Program-made: the position numbers and the translations under genes
Shown here: positions 2,407 to 44,113 of the stretch, piece by piece
Position numbering within the stretch: position 1 is the first letter of the stretch
How the letters are laid out: every line of letters begins with the position of its first letter
Source of the DNA: Patescibacteria group bacterium
GTDB taxonomy: Bacteria > Patescibacteriota > Patescibacteriia > JAXHNJ01
Length of the DNA stretch: 64,000 bases
Reading direction: 5' to 3'
Assembly: GCA_034520665.1 (NCBI GenBank)
Contig: JAXHNJ010000002.1
Span: 544,660-608,659 of the forward strand
The notes under the pieces: generated by a model
Database searches by the model: none
Seen by the model: only the letters and a program-made list of their open reading frames with translations
Told to the model about the DNA's origin: nothing

Positions 2407-5400
2407 ATGGAAACTTTGTTTTTAAAAACGTCTAAAAGATCACAAAGAAAAAAAGAGGGCCTTAATAGTAAAGGTCTATTAAGGTTTTTAAATTGTATAC
2501 CAGTATATTTTATGGAATTTTTTTGTGGGTTAAGATATTTACCGCATTTTATAAAATCTAAACCCTATTCTGGTTATCAAAAATTAACCGAACAGGATGA
2601 AAATGGCACTTATAAAATTCCTTATACCACTTATTTAAAATACAAAAAATACTCTCTATTCACAACCACTGTATTATTGGTTTTACTGGGTTTATTTTCT
2701 GGTTTATTTATTTTTACGATTACGCCAAATAAAATAGAAGCTGCTGGTGGTGATCCTCTACCTGGAGAATGTGAAGCACCATATTCTACTCAGTTATCCG
2801 AACCTAGTTCAAATTTAAATATTTGTGTTGGTGATACTTTTTTTATGAATGGAAAATGGTATGATAGTGAACCCACAAATGATCCTTGCAGCGCTAAACA
2901 ATTTAGTGCTTATGTTGATAGTGATATAATTGATACAAACACTTCATTAAGCACTACCTCAACATTTAGTGAATTGGTAGAAGAAAATGATGCTTTTGGT
3001 AAAACTGTAACTGCTGAAACAAAAGGCTCATATTCCATTAAATTTGCCATGGCTGAAGATGATTCTCCTAGTAAAACAATTACTGTTAGCGACTCTCCCT
3101 CTTATTCCCAATCTCTCTCTCACTCGGACAATTCTACTTCTTCTATCACCTGGTCCTGGTCAGATGATGAAGATGAAGATAATTACCGCGTTATGGACAC
3201 TGGAGACGCTAACCAGTCCGGAGACCTGGCCGCCGATACTACCTCTTGGCAAGAAACCTCTTTGTCAGCCAACACTCAATACACCCGCTACCTGCAATTA
3301 GTTAATGGCTGTGGCACTACTAATACGGCCAATTTAAGTACCTACACTTCTATTGAATCACCATCCGGTATTTCTTTTGATACAGTAGAAAAAAACACCA
3401 TCACGGTTTCTGGTGCCGGTACGCTTTCAAATTTAGCTTCTGACTCTTCCGGCATAAAATTTTCTGAAATAGTAACCAGTAGTGATTCCGGTTGGAAGCA
3501 AACCAATTCCTGGGAAAAAACTGGTCTCAGTGCTAACACCGAATACACCTTTGAGGCCCAGACCAGAAATGGCGATGGTGATGAAAACTCAAGTATTGCC
3601 GGAGAAAGTAAATATACTTTAGCGGCCGAGGCTAATATCTCTAGTGATCTGACCGAAGAGGCCTGGACTAATTCAACTAGCTTTACTTTTACTAACGAGG
3701 CTGGCTTTGGCTCGGGTGGTTTAGAATACTACCGTTATGTTTTTGACCAAAACGATTCCCATTCTTTTAATGACACCGAAACCCAGTGGTCCTCTGGCAC
3801 CAAAGAAGAAACTGATCCTTCGGAAGGTAATTGGTACATGCATGTTAAAGCCTATAACGCTGAAGACACAGCGGCTGCTTCTGGAGCTACTCAAACTCTC
3901 GGTCCCTTTAAGGTAGATATTACTGACCCAGCCATTACTAATAATGTTACTGGCGACACAGCCTGGCTTAATGCAGCGGGCACGGCTTATGATGTGGACT
4001 TTATGTCTAATGGCGGCTCTAACTTAGATTATGCTCAATACGCTGTCGGTACTACTCAAGGCGGCAGTGATGTTTTAGGCTGGACTAATATTTTTACCGA
4101 AGACACGGCTTCTTACACCAACTCTTGGCCGGTGGACTTTGACAGTTTAGCTGAAGGCACTAATTACGTTTCTTTTAGGACCTATGATCAGGCGGGAAAT
4201 GTGAAAGAAGAACTATCAAATGGTTTTCAAGTCAGAAAAGACACTATTGTGCCAGTGCCTGATGTGGAGACACCAGTTACTACTTCATCAGCAGCCATTA
4301 TTAGCTGGACTACTTCCGAGCCGACCACTACTCAACTAAATTGGGGCGCGGATGAAAATACTACAAATTCTACCACTGAAAGTGAGGAAAAATCCACTGA
4401 ACACACTGTTACCTTAGATAGCTTAAGTGATAATACTGAATATTTCTTTAAAGTAGCCGGACAGGATAAGGCTTCTAACCAAACACTTCATACGGCTGAG
4501 AGTTTTACTACCGCTGAACTAGAAGCCACTGTCATCACCAATGTTCAAGTCTCTGAAATTTCTCAGACCTCAGTTAAAGTCACTTGGACTACCAATCATG
4601 AAGCTGACTCCAAAGTGCGTTATGGTACTACCACTGCTTATGGTGATGAGGTTTATGATTCTGAAGAAGTAACCAGCCATGAAATGATCGTCACTGGTTT
4701 AACCGCTGGCACCACTTATCATTATGAGGTTTTAAGTGTCGGCAATACTTCAACCAATGACGCTGACGCTACTTTTATGACTGAAGAAGCGGAAGAACCA
4801 GCCGAAGAAGATGAAACTGAACAAGAGGAAGTTACTGAAGAAGCGGAAGAACCAGCCGAAGAAGAAACTACTCAAACTTATGTGGCTTCTCCGACAGTAG
4901 TCAAAAACGAAACTAACCCCATAGAAGAAGGAGTCACCATTAACGAAGTCAAACCAACTATTACTGGCCTGGCTCGTTCTAACAACACTATTTTCATTTT
5001 TATTGACGGCGAACTGGAGAATACGGTTCTTTCGACGGACGATCTTTCAGGAACCGGATCCTTTGCTTATAAATTAAGAAGAGTTTTACCTGAAGGTGAA
5101 CACACTTTATATACTATTTCTCGCGATCAGAGTGGTAATTATTCTGATGCTTCACCAGTTATTACCTTTAATGTTGACCATCCCTTTGTGGCGCCCACTC
5201 TTTACACCCCAGTTTTTACAGATGGCTCTAACCCCACGGTTATTGTTAACGGCGTAGCCAGAAATGATTCCTTGATTAAACTCTACATAGACGATGAATA
5301 CCAGGATCAATTTAACGTGACCAATAATCCGGACCATGAAAATACTTATTTCAGCTACCAATATCCCATTAGTAGTTTAGCCAGTGGCTCTCATACCATT

Positions 5401-16238: not shown

Positions 16239-16267
16239 ATATAGATTTAAAAAAGCATAATAAAAAA

Positions 16268-16298
16268 TCCTCTTTATAAAATAAAGGGGGTTTTTTTA
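16268..16298 (+). terminator. Rho-independent terminator after hup
   Basis: CCTCTTTAT...ATAAAGGGGG hairpin followed by TTTTTTT. Confidence 0.5.
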
Positions 16299-16877
16299 TA
16301 AGCGTTGAAAACGTCTAATCGCTTCGCTTGTTGAAGGTGTTCAAGACGCCTTAATATTATTAGAGAATTTTTATCAATTCGTCACGGCTCGGAGCAAACG
16401 GAGCGGAAAAATTTCACTAAAACATTCACAAAGATCTTTCCTCTATAATAGTGGCGTAAAGAAAATAGACCGGACTAAAGTCCGTATGAAAATAATATTT
16501 TCTTTTTTCCTAGCCACTTTCCTGCCCGACAACGGCTTCGCCGTTAGGCGAAGACAGGCGGGAGTGGCGTACTCATGAAATAGAAAATAAGGTTATACCG
16601 ACGCCCCCCTTTTACCACTTCGTCCGATCATTAAAGAGTAGATGTCAGTCGCGACTGACATCTACGGATAGCAGGCCGCATGGAGAAATCCTGTTAAATT
16701 AACCATAAGGTTCTCTCCACTTGGGTCGAGAGGGGATAGTAATGGTTAAACCTTGTCGGCAAACTTTTTTTAGTAAAAGCTCCAAAGGAAAACTTCGCCC
16801 TAAATTATGAAAGGAAAATAGCTGGTTTGCCGTAGGCGCGGATAAAGGCTTGACCCCTTCTTTTCACAAAAGGCGAT

Positions 16878-28460: not shown

Positions 28461-29678
28461 ATGAATAAAAAACAAACTTGGTTAGTAATATTTGTAATTA
28501 TTATTACCTTGCTCAGTCTTTTTTTGAGATTTTATAATTTAGGCTTTCCCGAAAAAATTACATCGGATGAACATTATTTTGTAAATTTTGGTCGCGCCTA
28601 TGTTAGTCAGGAATTTTATCATGATGTGCATCCACCTTTGGGCAAGTTTTTTATTGCTCTGGGCATAAAAATATTTGGCGATAATGCCTTAGGCTGGCGT
28701 TTTTTTACGGCCTTATTTGGCAGTCTTTTGGTACCCTTAGGTTATTTATTGGCCTGGAAAATGTTTAATAATAAATTTATAGCCGTTTCTTTTTCTCTGT
28801 TTATACTTTTTGACGGTCTGTTTTTTGTCCAGTCACGCTTAGCCCGGCTAGACACTATTTATTTATTTTTCTTATTTCTAGCTTTCTATTTTTTCTTTTC
28901 TTTTTTGAAAAGCCATAAAGACAAAGAAATTTATTTAATTTTGTCGGGTTTATTTTTGGGCTTTAGCATAAGTACCAAATGGGTGGCTTTGGCCGGCGGT
29001 TTGTCTTTTTTAATAATCTGGCTTATTAAAAAGAAAGAAATAAAAAAATCAATAATTTGGTTTTTATTTTACCTGGTTTTTATTCCTTTGGCTATTTATT
29101 TTTTAATTTGGCAGATTCATTACGGATTAATAAGTACCCAGCCTATTACTTTTTATGAAAATTTTAAGATATTAACTTATCACCAGGGAATTAAAGAAGT
29201 ACATTCTTTAGGTTCGCCTTTTTGGTCCTGGCCTTTAATGATTTATCCTTTCTCATATTTTATAGAAAAAAGCGAGCAAGTAATAAAATATATTACGGAT
29301 TTACCTAATCCATTAATCTGGTGGCCGGCTCTAGTCGGGTTTTTATATGGCTTTTTTAAATTTAGACTTAAAGACAAAAAATTTAATATTATTTTAATAA
29401 TTTTTGCCAGTCATTTTCTACCCTATCTTTTTATCTCTCGCTCGCTTTTTCTTTATCATTTTATTCTGGCGGCTCCTTTTTTATGGCTGGGATTTTTATA
29501 TTTTTTAAGTAAGTTTTGGTACCAATCAAAAAAAAGCAAAATTATTATTTTAGGTTATTTTGCTTTAGTTATTATTTCTTTTGTTTTTTTCTATCCGGTT
29601 TTAATCGGCCAGCCATTATCCACGAGCAGTTTTAATTTAAGATGGTGGCTAATTAGCTGGTTTCCTTTGGCGGTCTAA
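28461..29678 (+). CDS. GT39/PMT-family dolichyl-phosphate-mannose protein mannosyltransferase-like glycosyltransferase
   Basis: N-terminal DEHYF loop motif, HPPLGK and a multi-TM GT-C fold. The likely start is MNKKQ at 28461, inside the longer ORF that opens at 28335. Confidence 0.8.
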   Translation: MNKKQTWLVIFVIIITLLSLFLRFYNLGFPEKITSDEHYFVNFGRAYVSQEFYHDVHPPLGKFFIALGIKIFGDNALGWRFFTALFGSLLVPLGYLLAWKMFNNKFIAVSFSLFILFDGLFFVQSRLARLDTIYLFFLFLAFYFFFSFLKSHKDKEIYLILSGLFLGFSISTKWVALAGGLSFLIIWLIKKKEIKKSIIWFLFYLVFIPLAIYFLIWQIHYGLISTQPITFYENFKILTYHQGIKEVHSLGSPFWSWPLMIYPFSYFIEKSEQVIKYITDLPNPLIWWPALVGFLYGFFKFRLKDKKFNIILIIFASHFLPYLFISRSLFLYHFILAAPFLWLGFLYFLSKFWYQSKKSKIIILGYFALVIISFVFFYPVLIGQPLSTSSFNLRWWLISWFPLAV

Positions 29679-30798
29679 TTTTTTTTACATTAAGGAAATA
29701 AGCGGCTAAATAAGTAGCGATCGGTATGGCTAAAATCAGGCCAATACTGCCGGTTAGGGTTCTGACAATTTCGGTGGCAATAACTTCATGGTTAATAACA
29801 TCACCAAAACTTAAAAAAGGCGGTTCATTGACTGTAAATAATAAAAGCAGCGGCAAGGAGGCACCGGCGTAAGCTAAAAATAGAGTATTAACCATAGAGC
29901 CCATATGCGATTTTCCCACTCGAAAGGCTCGTTTAAATATTTCGCGCCTGCTTAAATTAGAATTAGCCTTCTTAATTTCCTGACAGGTAGCTATTTGGCT
30001 GATAACTACATCATCGAGAACACCCAAGGCGCCAATAATAATAGCGGCCAAAAGAAGTCCTTTTAGATTAATAAAACTGCGGCCGCTGGCAATTAAAAAG
30101 AGTGTTTCTTCCTGGGCTAGACCGGTTAGTTTAGCTAGATCAGTAAATATTGAGGAAATAAAAGCGGTTATAATTAAAGCAATAATTATACTTAAAACAG
30201 CCAGATGAGATTTTTTATTAAAGCCTTCAGTTATATAGATAATACAAAACAAAATCATTATAGCGCCGATTATTGAAATAAGAATTGGGCTGACTCCATT
30301 CAAAATCTGAGGAATAATAAATTTCATAATTACTAAAAAACTGATAACCAGAGCAATTAAAGCCCTTAAACCTTTTAATCGGCCGATAACAATAATTACC
30401 AAAGCAAAGAGCGCAGCTAGCCAATAAAGGCTGCCCTGACGGACATAATCAGTAATATAAAATTTGTCATCACCTTCACTATCAGTGGTTTTAGTCACCA
30501 AAACTTTGTCGCCAATCTGATACTCTTTTTTGCTCAAAACCTGAATATCAGAAATACCGTAAAAAATTATTTCTTTATCCTGCCACTCATCCTCTAATCC
30601 TTTCAGTTTAATATTTTGCTGACGGTATTGATGGCCGTGTTCGTCTTCCTTGACTTGCTCCTCAATAATTTCAATTACCCGGGCTTTAAAAACTTCATCA
30701 GTTTCTGGCTTTTGATTGTTTTCTAAATTTTCTTGGGCTAGGGCCTGAAAAGGAAATAAACAAAGTAAGACGGCTATAATTAATATTATTTTTTTCAT
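29653..30798 (-). CDS. YibE/F-family membrane protein
   Basis: Signal peptide plus periplasmic domain, then multi-TM YibE/F-like segments (GRSFINLKGLLLAAIIIGALGVLDDVVISQ). Confidence 0.75.
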   Translation of the reverse strand: MKKIILIIAVLLCLFPFQALAQENLENNQKPETDEVFKARVIEIIEEQVKEDEHGHQYRQQNIKLKGLEDEWQDKEIIFYGISDIQVLSKKEYQIGDKVLVTKTTDSEGDDKFYITDYVRQGSLYWLAALFALVIIVIGRLKGLRALIALVISFLVIMKFIIPQILNGVSPILISIIGAIMILFCIIYITEGFNKKSHLAVLSIIIALIITAFISSIFTDLAKLTGLAQEETLFLIASGRSFINLKGLLLAAIIIGALGVLDDVVISQIATCQEIKKANSNLSRREIFKRAFRVGKSHMGSMVNTLFLAYAGASLPLLLLFTVNEPPFLSFGDVINHEVIATEIVRTLTGSIGLILAIPIATYLAAYFLNVKKIRPPKETS

Positions 30799-31016
30799 AT
30801 CTTATCAATTTTGATTAATTTATCGTCATTTAAATAGTAATTCCGATAGCTGGAGTATTTGTATTCTTCAGGGTTTTTGGTCAGTTTAGTATAAATTGGA
30901 TTATTATGAATATATTTTAGTTTTTACTCTAATTTCTTCTCGGAATAGATATTAAAGTCGTAAAAATCATTCATCCAGACTGAATATTTTCTCTTCTTTC
31001 TAAAACTAGTCGGGTA

Positions 31017-31113
31017 GGCCGAATCCTCAGATTCGGCCGAGAGACTAGCCCGATCTGAGGATCGGGCCGTAATACCCAGTGTAGGAGAGTGGCGCGGATC
31101 TCCTGATCCGCGC
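31017..31113. repeat. Array of three perfect GC-rich hairpins with GATC-centred stems
   Basis: GGCCGAATC-CTCA-GATTCGGCC (31017-31038). GCCCGATC-TGAG-GATCGGGC (31048-31067). GCGCGGATC-TCCT-GATCCGCGC (31092-31113). Confidence 0.6.
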
Positions 31114-31168
31114 TTCTCGGGTAATTTTAAGGGCTTCCTTGGCAGTTTGTTTTATACTAGGTAGTTTC

Positions 31169-31354
31169 CAATGGCTTTTTTATTCCAAACCCACCACCAA
31201 AACCTTACTAGCTGCTATAACCATAACCAATTAGCAAAAAAGAGGGTTTTGGGCCGAGCCGCTAGTTTGGTTATTAGGCTGAGTCAATGGTTTTTTATTC
31301 CAAACCCACCACCAAAACCTTACTAGCTGCTATAACCATAACCAATTAGCAAAA
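31169..31354. repeat. Two copies of a 70-nt direct repeat separated by a 46-nt spacer
   Basis: CAATGG(C)TTTTTTATTCCAAACCCACCACCAAAACCTTACTAGCTGCTATAACCATAACCAATTAGCAAAA at 31169-31239 and 31285-31354, with one indel between copies. Confidence 0.7.
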
Positions 31355-31558
31355 CATAAATCGCCGGATAAATCCGGCGCCTTCACCTCTTCATCCGCGT
31401 AGCTGGAGATTTATCTCCAGATGTCAGAATTAAATGAGCGTGGTTGGGCCTGATTATAATTTGAAAAAAATTATCGTAAACAAATAAATTTAATTATAAA
31501 CCTTACTGGTTACAAAGTAAGTCTGGTTTTCTTTATTGATAGTTTTAAGGGGCATTAG

Positions 31559-32737
31559 TTAAGCAAACATCAACCACTCCGGCTTGATTAGAAGCAATAT
31601 ACCGAGAATGAAAATAATAATTCCACCGATTAATTCAGAAAAACGGGAATATTTGCCGGTCAATCCGGTTACTTTGACTGTTAACATAGCCACAGTAAAG
31701 ATAATCATATCATCAAGCATGAAAATTATAGTGTAGCCGGCTATGTAAAGATAATACTGCCATTTAGGTAAATTACTTAAGGCCAATATTTGAGTATAAA
31801 TGGCTGGCAGGCCAACTGAACAGGCTAACTCAATCAAATTAACTACAAAAGCCAAAACTACTATACCACCTAGGGCGTAAATAAAATTTCTTGATTCAAC
31901 AATATTATTTATTTTATCCATCACTTTTTGGCGCCGTTCGCCTTTAACTACTTTGCATTCCTCGGATCTTTTTTGAATAAATTCTTTTAAGTAATAAAAA
32001 CCAACCCCTAAAGCCAGAACGCCGATAATTATCTGGACAATACGGACATAGCCAATAAAAAGAAACAGATTAAGCCAGGCCGTCATAAAGAGAAAATAAA
32101 CCAAAGCGCTGGCCGCGATAAAGGTCAGGCCGATAGCCCACATGTTTTTCCGGTTTTTCATACCTAAAAGGGCGCTGATTAAAAAAACTAAAACCCACAT
32201 AGCACAGGGGTTAAAACCGTCCACCGCTCCGATGATTAAAGTTAAAACCGGCAGGGAATACTTGGTTAAATCAACTTGACCAAAAAAAGGCAGGTTGTAT
32301 TTTTTTTCAATATGCAGAGCCTGATTAGTATTTTCGTTTTGGTTATTATTAACAGCAGTATTTGTCTGGTTGTTAATATTAGTATTTTCCAGTTCCTCTA
32401 GCTTATAATCAATAAAATTAATAATCGGAGTGTCACCAACAGCATATTGGCTGCCCCAGATCAGCATGGGTACTCCCCGTTCATTATTGGGGATATCGGC
32501 CTGTTCGCAGAATTGGTTAAAGCGGGCCGCATTTTGGCTATTTAAATAAACCTCTCTTTTTTCTATATTAACCTTATCTTCAAGATTGACTTTTTCCATA
32601 TATTCTTCGGCTTTATCACAATGAGGACAGGTGTAACCGTAATAAAAAATAACCTTTTCTTTATCCTGTGCCTGAGCCACAAAGGGTAAAGTTAATAAGA
32701 TTACTAATAAACTAAAAAGTAATATTTTTTTATTCAT
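31559..32737 (-). CDS. Thioredoxin-fold (CxxC) domain fused to a CcdA/DsbD-like transmembrane disulfide transporter
   Basis: Signal peptide, YGYTCPHC thioredoxin motif, and C-terminal TM helices with conserved Cys (FNPCAMW, ELACSVG). Confidence 0.75.
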   Translation of the reverse strand: MNKKILLFSLLVILLTLPFVAQAQDKEKVIFYYGYTCPHCDKAEEYMEKVNLEDKVNIEKREVYLNSQNAARFNQFCEQADIPNNERGVPMLIWGSQYAVGDTPIINFIDYKLEELENTNINNQTNTAVNNNQNENTNQALHIEKKYNLPFFGQVDLTKYSLPVLTLIIGAVDGFNPCAMWVLVFLISALLGMKNRKNMWAIGLTFIAASALVYFLFMTAWLNLFLFIGYVRIVQIIIGVLALGVGFYYLKEFIQKRSEECKVVKGERRQKVMDKINNIVESRNFIYALGGIVVLAFVVNLIELACSVGLPAIYTQILALSNLPKWQYYLYIAGYTIIFMLDDMIIFTVAMLTVKVTGLTGKYSRFSELIGGIIIFILGILLLIKPEWLMFA

Positions 32738-35522: not shown

Positions 35523-35653
35523 AAAATAGAATTGAATTATTTTTATTATAGCAAAAAAAATTTATTAAAGAAATTTTCTTAATTAATAATCGCAGGATAA
35601 ATCCGGCGCCGGTAGAATCTTAAAATAATATCACTCTCTGGCGCAACATTCAT

Positions 35654-43576: not shown

Positions 43577-43602
43577 TTAAAGCGTATAAATATAATTGAT
43601 TA

Positions 43603-43631
43603 ATCCCGGCTCAACGGCTGGGATTTTTGTT
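43603..43631 (+). terminator. Rho-independent terminator
   Basis: ATCCCGGC-tcaac-GGCTGGGAT hairpin followed by TTTTTG. Confidence 0.55.
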
Positions 43632-44113
43632 AATCAAAAAAGAGGGCACTCAAATTTGAGTGGCCAGAGGTATATAGCCTTCTATTTTCCAGCTTTAATG
43701 ATATTGCTGGATTAAAACTAGCCGTACGTTAGTCTAATAGAAACTTACCTCATTCCAAAATACCCTCATAATATCAACACTCCTTAAACCGTGTTTGACA
43801 TTATCTTAGTGACAATCCGGACAAGGCCGGGTACGAATTTAGCGGCCTTAGAGGCTTTTCCAACGGTGAAGTAGGAAGGAATCCAAGGCACCGGATTTAT
43901 TCTAATATAAATTTATTATTTTTGCAATGTTTGATTAATTAATAAAATATAGTTATAATATTGGTATCATAAATTTTGTTCTTTTTTCACCTTCTGGAAT
44001 AGCCTGAAAGGAGTTTATTAAAGGCTTTTAATTATTCCAGATTAGGGAATTAGATTTGACAACGAAGCGTCAAGCAGCTTTAACCCCCTGTTTATTAAAA
44101 AAGGAGGTAAGGA

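Follow-up and report, generated by a model that had tools for sequence, protein, structure and literature searches.

A hairpin-rich gap upstream of yibE/F in a Patescibacteria genome is very probably a decayed RAYT gene with its REP palindromes

Between two minus-strand genes of a Patescibacteria group bacterium, one for a YibE/F family protein and one for a thioredoxin-like (Trx-like)/SfLAP membrane protein, lies a gap of 760 nt (30799-31558) that is crowded with perfect GC-rich hairpins and contains a long direct repeat. The gap belongs to a 64,000-nt stretch of contig JAXHNJ010000002.1 (assembly GCA_034520665.1, positions 544,660 to 608,659), hereafter the window. What are these hairpins, and from what do they derive? 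A preliminary description based on the letters of the window regarded the region as a non-coding gap and considered a family of repetitive extragenic palindromic (REP)-like or miniature inverted-repeat transposable element (MITE)-like sequences, a processed structured RNA, or an attenuator. Our analysis indicates that the gap is very probably the pseudogene of a REP-associated tyrosine transposase (RAYT, also called TnpA_REP), with the GC-rich hairpins as its REP palindromes. Two of the hairpins form a REPIN, a doublet of inverted REPs. In the following, coordinates without a locus name refer to the window (Table 1), L numbers denote loci compared with it, and P numbers denote homologous proteins.

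Remnants of a RAYT gene in the gap

A RAYT family profile was made from 28 homologues and run on the minus strand of the window. Together with tblastn, it revealed remnants of the gene that are spread over three frames. The C-terminal half is well preserved (profile positions 111-195, E = 2e-31). It keeps the Tyr-helix motif YIHNNP (as KYIHNNP), is interrupted by an in-frame TAA at 30926-30924, and shares 55% identity with residues 103-195 of the RAYT of L003 (tblastn, E = 1e-30). At the DNA level, 31085-30802 is 79% identical to positions 843-1123 of L086 (284 nt, E = 5e-67). The N-terminal remnant (profile positions 1-27, E = 2e-4) contains another in-frame TAA at 31492-31490 and matches residues 1-26 of P0122 with 77% identity and residues 1-20 of P0090 with 80% identity (tblastn), and the DNA of 31596-31453 is 80% identical to positions 1-148 of L084. 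In a frame different from that of the N-terminal remnant, a short segment with the residues NHAHLIL represents the HUH motif (profile positions 54-66, E = 0.15). It gave short tblastn matches to VIMPNHLHLIV, and its DNA matches the syntenic remnant of L087 at 88% over 43 nt. A further segment is homologous to the start of the linker in the L084-type RAYT (65% identity to residues 81-100 of P0122, E = 1e-4; 75.5% DNA identity of 31156-31108 to positions 278-325 of L084, 49 nt); it can be read either as L084-type in frame 1 or as the 'RRKPSLSP' type in frame 2. Profile positions 28-53 and 67-110 are absent. No intact open reading frame (ORF) of a RAYT was found, owing to the frameshifts and the two TAA stops. 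What the preliminary description took for non-coding DNA thus lacks an intact ORF but is a pseudogene on the minus strand, a context that the description missed.

The family was settled by homologue searches and by NCBIfam. The NCBIfam model NF047646 (REP-associated tyrosine transposase) matched the C-terminal fragment with 45 bits (E = 8e-12) at model positions 89-146 only; its cut-off of 80 bits applies to the full length, and a lower score is expected for a partial fragment. Both intact relatives scored above the cut-off, L086 with 117 bits and P0122 with 103 bits. A search with the C-terminal fragment returned five proteins, one of which is named 'putative transposase' and two of which come from a Patescibacteria metagenome-assembled genome (MAG). 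A near-intact but frameshifted homologue with the HUH motif was located on a JGI contig (L003), and its reconstructed protein yielded 285 homologues. Among the 120 listed, most are about 170-230 aa long, nearly all contain PF01797, and several carry the source name RayT or REP-associated tyrosine transposase. A sub-threshold Pfam match of the C-terminal fragment alone to DUF6035 was discarded. No second RAYT-like sequence was found across the window, and the whole gap gave no match in phage and plasmid collections. Exact-product look-ups for P0002, P0005, P0090, and a spurious 51-aa ORF returned no contigs. Because the profile, tblastn, and NF047646 matches agree with the split frames, the stops, and the lack of any further RAYT in the window, we assign the gap to a RAYT pseudogene with high confidence.

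The TGA stop of the pseudogene overlaps the ATG of yibE/F (ATGA, 30795-30798). This arrangement suggests that the RAYT and yibE/F were formerly translationally coupled or co-transcribed. The same stop/start overlap with yibE/F is retained in L088 (about position 4001).

Five hairpins and a REPIN

All five hairpins of the gap, H1 to H5, fall inside the pseudogene. The three consecutive perfect hairpins of 8-9 bp that the preliminary description placed at 31017-31113 were recovered with stems of 9, 8, and 9 bp, and the two that close the region are likewise perfect. Across the window, 17 distinct perfect hairpins have stems of 7 bp or more and a GC content of at least 50%, and five of them, with stems of 8-9 bp each, are packed into 404 nt (31017-31420), which is 0.6% of the window length. 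Folded as single-stranded DNA, the hairpin elements reached z values of -3.6 to -5.5 relative to shuffles. On the plus strand, the tetranucleotide GT[AG]G stands immediately 5' of the stem, with no gap, in three of them (GTAG in H1 and H5, GTGG in H3).

H2 repeats H1 in inverted orientation. Their arms are 81% complementary, and so are, completely, their 4-nt loops CTCA and TGAG. The doublet lies in the linker between the HUH and Tyr motifs, where H2 and H1 are read through in frame as 22 codons, at the same position as in intact relatives. The peptide thus read is also encoded by P0005, P0113, and L086. At the DNA level, the two REPINs of L086 and the one that follows the RAYT in L084 each share 93% identity with 31071-31012, and over a 54-nt core the identity to L084 rises to 96%; the coding DNA next to the REPIN shows 67-80% identity in the same comparison. 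L086, a metagenome contig of 1.3 kb, encodes an intact 208-aa RAYT with an in-frame 63-nt element (GGGTACTGTCCGATCCTCAGATCGGACTAATCTCTCGGCCGAATCTGAGGATTCGGCCTACCC), and directly after the RAYT stop it carries a second REPIN that is identical at 63/63 positions; both copies have sharp GGGTA...TACCC ends. The same REPIN element is located downstream of the RAYT in L084.

Nine REPINs from 6 loci were aligned, and they display the feet GGGTAG...CTACCC. The two-hairpin structure is 95.5% paired across the alignment, and at 13 of its 15 pairs both partners vary. When the two REPs are paired with each other, loops included, the value is 95.9%, and both partners vary at 10 of 11 pairs. None of 500 shuffles matched either the pairing or the covariation value. 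H1 and H2 therefore constitute a REPIN (31012-31077), as is evident from the near-identical elements in L084 and L086, the feet, and the covariation of both the stems and the inter-REP pairing.

Hairpins of this kind are common in related RAYT genes. Those nearest to the L003 gene (L003-L009) contain one or two perfect hairpins of 7-11 bp at about +290 and +326, counted from the start codon, and in the two-hairpin loci L003, L004, and L007 the loops are complementary. Many of 80 genomic RAYT loci have REP hairpins with complementary loops on both sides of the gene. Among the more distant of these RAYTs, many show the flanking hairpins in inverted orientation, the classical layout of REP-RAYT systems. 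The linker peptides GRRGPLTS...GQGTQATR or GRRKPSLSP...ASEGSRLP are conserved in RAYTs from Patescibacteria, Dehalococcoidia, and a Gammaproteobacteria MAG (alignment columns ~101-150), which implies that near-identical REP cores are common to several phyla. In an Acidobacteriota MAG (L016), a REP hairpin (CCGCACCCTT-N7-AAGGGTGCGG) occurs downstream of the RAYT at +543, +696, and +849 with a strict spacing of 153 nt, and in another Acidobacteriota MAG (L013) this REP apparently stands between two RAYT-like matches.

The 22-nt REP core was matched exactly in two metagenome contigs, one of which (L085) is probably unrelated, and it gave no match to viral contigs. In L085 (Ga0214473_10000286, GC-rich), the exact 22-nt core of H1 is part of a hairpin doublet at 2790-2846 (CTGCTGAATC-TCAG-GATTCAGCAG and GCGGCCGAATC-TGAG-GATTCGGCCGC), which may reflect either chance or a distantly related REP family.

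Table 1. Positions of the RAYT remnants, hairpins, repeats, and flanking genes in the window
Feature	Position	Strand	Sequence and remarks
RAYT (TnpA_REP) pseudogene	30799..31555	minus	tblastn and hmmsearch matches in three frames; fills the whole gap
C-terminal RAYT half	30799..31052	minus	...YPTSFRKKRKYSVWMNDFYDFNIYSEKKLE*KLKYIHNNPIYTKL...KIDKI, ending YKYSSYRNYYLNDDKLIKIDKI*
REPIN (inverted REPs H1 and H2)	31012..31077	minus	66 nt; reads ...ARSSDRASLSAESEDSAYP...; feet GGGTA...TACCC; z = -4.97
H1	31017-31038		GGCCGAATC-CTCA-GATTCGGCC; 9-bp stem; perfect
H2	31048-31067		GCCCGATC-TGAG-GATCGGGC; 8-bp stem; perfect
H3	31092-31113		GCGCGGATC-TCCT-GATCCGCGC; 9-bp stem; perfect
H3 with foot	31089..31113	plus	gtgg-CGCGGATC-TCCT-GATCCGCG; REP-like; z = -4.9
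Segment holding H3	31093..31152	minus	KQTAKEALKITREARIRRSA; linker start of L084-type RAYT
Direct repeat, copy 1	31169..31239		exact part 31176-31239; z = -0.39, no significant fold
Spacer between repeats	31240..31284		about 45 nt; minus strand reads PLTQPNNQTSGSAQNP
Direct repeat, copy 2	31285..31354		exact part 31291-31354; from sequence comparison
H4	31362-31379		CGCCGGAT-AA-ATCCGGCG; element 31359..31381; perfect palindrome, no GTAG foot
H5	31403-31420	plus	CTGGAGAT-TT-ATCTCCAG; perfect; with gtag foot 31399..31420, REP-like; z = -5.45
HUH-motif remnant	31419..31457	minus	IIRPNHAHLILTS
N-terminal remnant	31475..31555	minus	MPLKTINKENQTYFVTSKVYN*IYLF
YibE/F family gene	29653-30798	minus	downstream neighbour of the gap
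Trx-like/SfLAP membrane protein gene	31559-32737	minus	upstream neighbour of the gap
Second H4-type palindrome	35588..35610		CGCAGGAT-AA-ATCCGGCG; one stem mismatch; divergent intergenic region between a methyltransferase gene and lgt

The remaining hairpins and the direct repeat

On the minus strand, GAGAAG precedes H3, and it likewise stands before the intragenic REPs of L084 and L088. In the gap of L088, the doublet GTGCGGATC-TCCT-GATCCGCAC and GGTTGGATC-AGGA-GATCCAACC is enclosed between GAGAAG and CTTCTC. H5 is kept in L087 as CTGGAGAT-GA-ATCTCCAG, followed by CTACCC.

H4 is followed on the minus strand by a T-rich tail, a terminator-like pattern, and could end transcription downstream of the Trx-like gene. 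The recurrence of GGATAAATCCGGCGCC at 35595, pointed out in the preliminary description, was found and extends to a match of 22/23 nt between 31359-31381 and 35588-35610. The motif SNGGATWWATCCNS has 2 matches in the window, where 0.03 are expected, and these are only at the two H4-type sites. H4-type palindromes may represent a small dispersed family, either REP-like or operator-like. A palindrome similar to H4 (GCAGGATTTATCCTGC) lies downstream of yibE/F in L087 (5306-5321). A 14/16 match to the H4 motif occurs at 43887-43902, inside a gap of ~540 nt (43577-44113) that contains no ORF of at least 60 aa and no Rfam match at E <= 0.1.

The direct repeat had been described as 2 x 70 nt with a 46-nt spacer, which is essentially correct: 64 nt are exact, the copies start 115 nt apart, and the similarity extends to ~70/71 nt with one 1-nt indel. 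Two copies of a 64-nt unit do not make a CRISPR array, for which three or more repeats of 24-48 nt are required, and the sole CRISPR-repeat match in Rfam is at chance level (at H2, E = 3.1); this agrees with the preliminary description. Tandem Repeats Finder reported nothing. No other copy of the 64-nt unit was found in the window or in the fetched loci, and an exact search of the metagenome collection with a 31-nt core of the unit returned nothing. By tblastn, the spacer weakly resembles the linker GSRGPLTSANNRSSG found in P0001 and P0011 (E = 0.001-0.003), and 31249-31265 matches the centre of the REPIN (31032-31048) at 76%. From these similarities, the spacer may be a degenerate, REP-derived piece of the linker. 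The repeat looks like a recent local tandem duplication of 115 nt within the decaying gene. A target-site duplication (TTCATCC at 30970 and 31390) around a 420-nt insertion was also considered and ruled out, since it does not fit the ends of the Logan assembly (30966 and 31397) and the interior is homologous to RAYT.

History of the locus in related genomes

In L084, L087, and L088, too, a RAYT or what is left of one occupies this chromosomal site, which follows the Trx-like gene and/or precedes yibE/F. L084 has the 3' end of the upstream Trx-like gene in common with the window, followed by an almost intact RAYT. In L087, where YibE/F is 88% identical and the gap is 428 nt long, the HUH remnant, H5, and other GGGTAG elements are kept. 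In L088, with a YibE/F of 72% identity, a gap of 293 nt includes a complete GAGAAG...CTTCTC REPIN and a C-terminal remnant. Because these syntenic relatives carry either a near-intact copy or differently decayed remnants, the RAYT is ancestral at the locus and is decaying independently in each lineage. The insertion polymorphism for which the preliminary description had proposed to compare related genomes is thus not seen.

The 5' part of the pseudogene resembles the L084-type RAYT, and the stretch that starts with the REPIN and runs to the stop resembles the L086 type. The pseudogene is therefore a mosaic, and the junction of its two parts adjoins H3. The proposal of a REP/MITE-like family can be divided accordingly. 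The hairpins are REP palindromes, as indicated by the three GT[AG]G tags and by a REPIN that is 93% identical in relatives, and the 70-nt repeat was not found to be dispersed.

Alternative explanations

Several observations weigh against a RAYT pseudogene with REP palindromes. H2 and H4 are without a proper GTAG foot: that of H2 is GTAT plus 3 extra nt (GTAC in relatives), and that of H4 is GAAG on the minus strand. Statistically, the HUH-motif remnant is weak on its own. About 230 nt in the middle (31157-31394), comprising H4, both 64-nt units, and the spacer, have no DNA homologue in relatives or in phage and plasmid collections, and the origin of this part is suggested by weak protein-level matches (E of about 1e-3). 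Genome-wide dispersal is a defining property of REPs, but one REPIN was found in 64 kb, and a second copy exists for the H4 type alone; in relatives the REPIN does occur at different positions. Moreover, an independent Logan assembly of SRR26473340 (L001 and L002, which encode proteins 100% identical to those of the window) breaks at 30966 and 31397 and spans neither the interior nor the duplication. These breaks in a k-mer assembly would also fit the idea that the 2 x 64-nt repeat is an assembly artefact, or a separate mobile family, and not a local duplication; the lack of a homologue of the repeat unit in relatives points the same way. We regard this as unlikely, because a mobile family is at odds with the absence of a second locus in the window or, for the 31-nt core, in the metagenome collection, and the breaks may stem from a repeat longer than the assembler word size or from 31-mers common to other RAYT copies.

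Three further explanations concern the hairpins themselves. The gap is directly upstream of YibE/F on the same strand, its hairpins are thermodynamically strong, and H4 with its T-rich tail fits a terminator; it might thus be a cis-regulatory leader (riboswitch or attenuator) or a small RNA gene that controls YibE/F. This is very unlikely. A search of the gap with the covariance models of Rfam 15 brought up no meaningful match under either the gathering or a relaxed threshold (no family at the gathering score; best relaxed E of at least 1.4), which leaves the earlier suggestion of a processed structured RNA or an attenuator without support. The sequence is accounted for by RAYT remnants and REPs, in other genomes the REPIN is found within RAYT genes or behind them rather than in front of yibE/F, and the gaps of L087 and L088 differ considerably in content and length, although yibE/F is otherwise conserved. 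A similar judgement, with still less probability left, applies to a remnant of an autonomous IS200/IS605 element whose left-end and right-end structures would be the hairpins. RAYTs and IS200 TnpA do share the Y1/HUH fold, PF01797 matches the relatives, and both kinds of enzyme recognise subterminal hairpins. However, the relatives score 24-28 bits with NF033573 (cut-off 55) against 103-117 bits with NF047646 (cut-off 80), occupation of the same site in at least four related genomes argues for vertical inheritance and against IS behaviour, one copy is present in 64 kb, and GTAG-tagged inverted dimers are typical of REPINs. It is hardly credible, lastly, that the hairpins are a by-product of selection on the linker peptide (GRRGPLTS...GQGTQATR, or ...AESEDSAYP) and not nucleic-acid elements. 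The peptide is conserved across many homologues, and intact genes are translated through the hairpins in frame, but identical or 93%-identical copies lie outside ORFs, after the RAYT stop, in L086 and L084. In addition, the stems remain perfect through compensatory double substitutions, the loop positions of the two REPs covary, and the flanking hairpins of L007 and L008 are of the same kind as those in the genes.

Possible mechanism and implications

For a RAYT pseudogene with REP palindromes, the following mechanism can be proposed. The intact RAYT (TnpA_REP) would be an HUH/Y1 nuclease acting on single-stranded DNA, with the hairpins as its cognate REP palindromes. By analogy with E. coli TnpA_REP and Pseudomonas REPINs, it would recognise single-stranded REP hairpins via the stem and the GTAG foot. 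By the same analogy, it would cleave and rejoin them and so spread REPINs around the genome. In the window, the hairpins are probably immobile, inert relics because the RAYT is broken, unless another RAYT is encoded elsewhere in the 698-kb contig. Any current effect, such as termination at H4 or stabilisation of the yibE/F transcript by the hairpins, would be incidental.

A more speculative idea is that the linker between the HUH and Tyr motifs is, in this clade, a selected 'home' of the master REPIN copy, beyond being a spot that tolerates insertions. Such a role is kept in view by the conservation of the linker peptides across phyla, the 63/63 identity of the two L086 copies, and the mosaic junction beside H3; we nevertheless consider it improbable. 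If it were true, a home REPIN would tie the element to its transposase, or would allow autoregulation through binding to its own gene or mRNA. In that case, recombination between REPs at the linker might be what produces the mosaic and duplicated form of decay in this minimal Patescibacteria genome.

For annotation, the hairpin-rich 760-nt 'intergenic' stretch would be a RAYT pseudogene with REPs and a REPIN, and not a candidate RNA or regulatory element. REPIN-RAYT systems with in-gene REPs are found in candidate phyla radiation (CPR) bacteria, whose genomes are very small. Across related genomes, one locus can be traced from a near-intact RAYT to heavy decay, and this series bears on models of how REPIN populations persist or die after the loss of the RAYT.

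Elsewhere in the window, a perfect 28-nt 'double-foot' palindrome (GTAGATGTCAGTCGCGACTGACATCTAC) was noticed at 16638-16665, in a GC-richer stretch of ~560 nt (about 16240-16800). That stretch looks structured and contains no ORF of at least 50 aa, and its best Rfam match, not a credible one, had E = 0.044 (17.6 bits, with a gathering score of 300). The palindrome could be a further REP or a piece of an unrecognised RNA gene.

Comparison with known REP and RAYT systems

IS200/IS605 elements resemble the system described here in having a transposase of the Y1/HUH fold that recognises subterminal DNA hairpins. They differ in that the relatives of the pseudogene reach 24-28 bits on the IS200 equivalog model (cut-off 55) and pass the REP_Tyr_transpos cut-off, and in that the RAYT occupies one fixed syntenic locus, with no multi-copy full-length element seen in the window.

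The REPIN-RAYT systems of Pseudomonas and Enterobacteria (Bertels & Rainey 2011, PMC3116915; structure of E. coli TnpA_REP, PMC3479197) are closer. There, too, two inverted REPs make a longer hairpin, the RAYT is single-copy and vertically inherited, and inverted REP hairpins flank the gene. In some bacteria, REPINs number in the hundreds per genome, according to the abstract of a preprint (bioRxiv 10.1101/119743). In contrast, one REPIN is present in the 64 kb analysed here, and it lies inside the remnant of a dead RAYT instead of beside the gene.

GTAG REPs, REP dimers, and in-frame intragenic REPs, including the palindromic elements of Rickettsia (RPEs), were described by Di Nocera et al. 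in 2013 (PMC3733652). The features in common are GTAG at the base of the stem, a stem length of 8-9 bp here and 6-9 bp as reported, dimers with the GTAG termini outside, and translation as 20-30 aa in tolerant linkers. Unlike the RPEs, the REPs of the present locus have the transposase gene itself as their insertion host, and H2 and H4 lack a clean GTAG foot.

The closest counterpart by features, and not by placement in a tree, is subclass 2.4 of tnpA_REP, for which in-frame REPs inside the gene are a hallmark (Quentin et al. 2018, BMC Genomics 19:475, PMC6006769); that article treats the subclass as equivalent to RAYT group 4 (Bertels et al. 2017). The listed relatives of the pseudogene, at mostly about 170-230 aa, are comparable with the subclass value of 194 aa. 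They also contain the WQ and YIxNNP signatures (IWQ and YIHNNP), and the intact ones carry the REPIN in the gene. The GT[AG]G...C[TC]AC 'double feet' of REP dimers appear here as GGGTAG...CTACCC. Some differences are apparent: the window contains a pseudogene whose middle is mosaic and duplicated, the clade has N/DHLH as its HUH motif where NH[IFV]H is tabulated, and the host belongs to Patescibacteria, a group mentioned in PMC6006769 under neither of the two names looked up. Since RAYT genes with in-gene REPs have already been described, the arrangement itself is ordinary for specialists, and the locus in the window is a decayed example of it.

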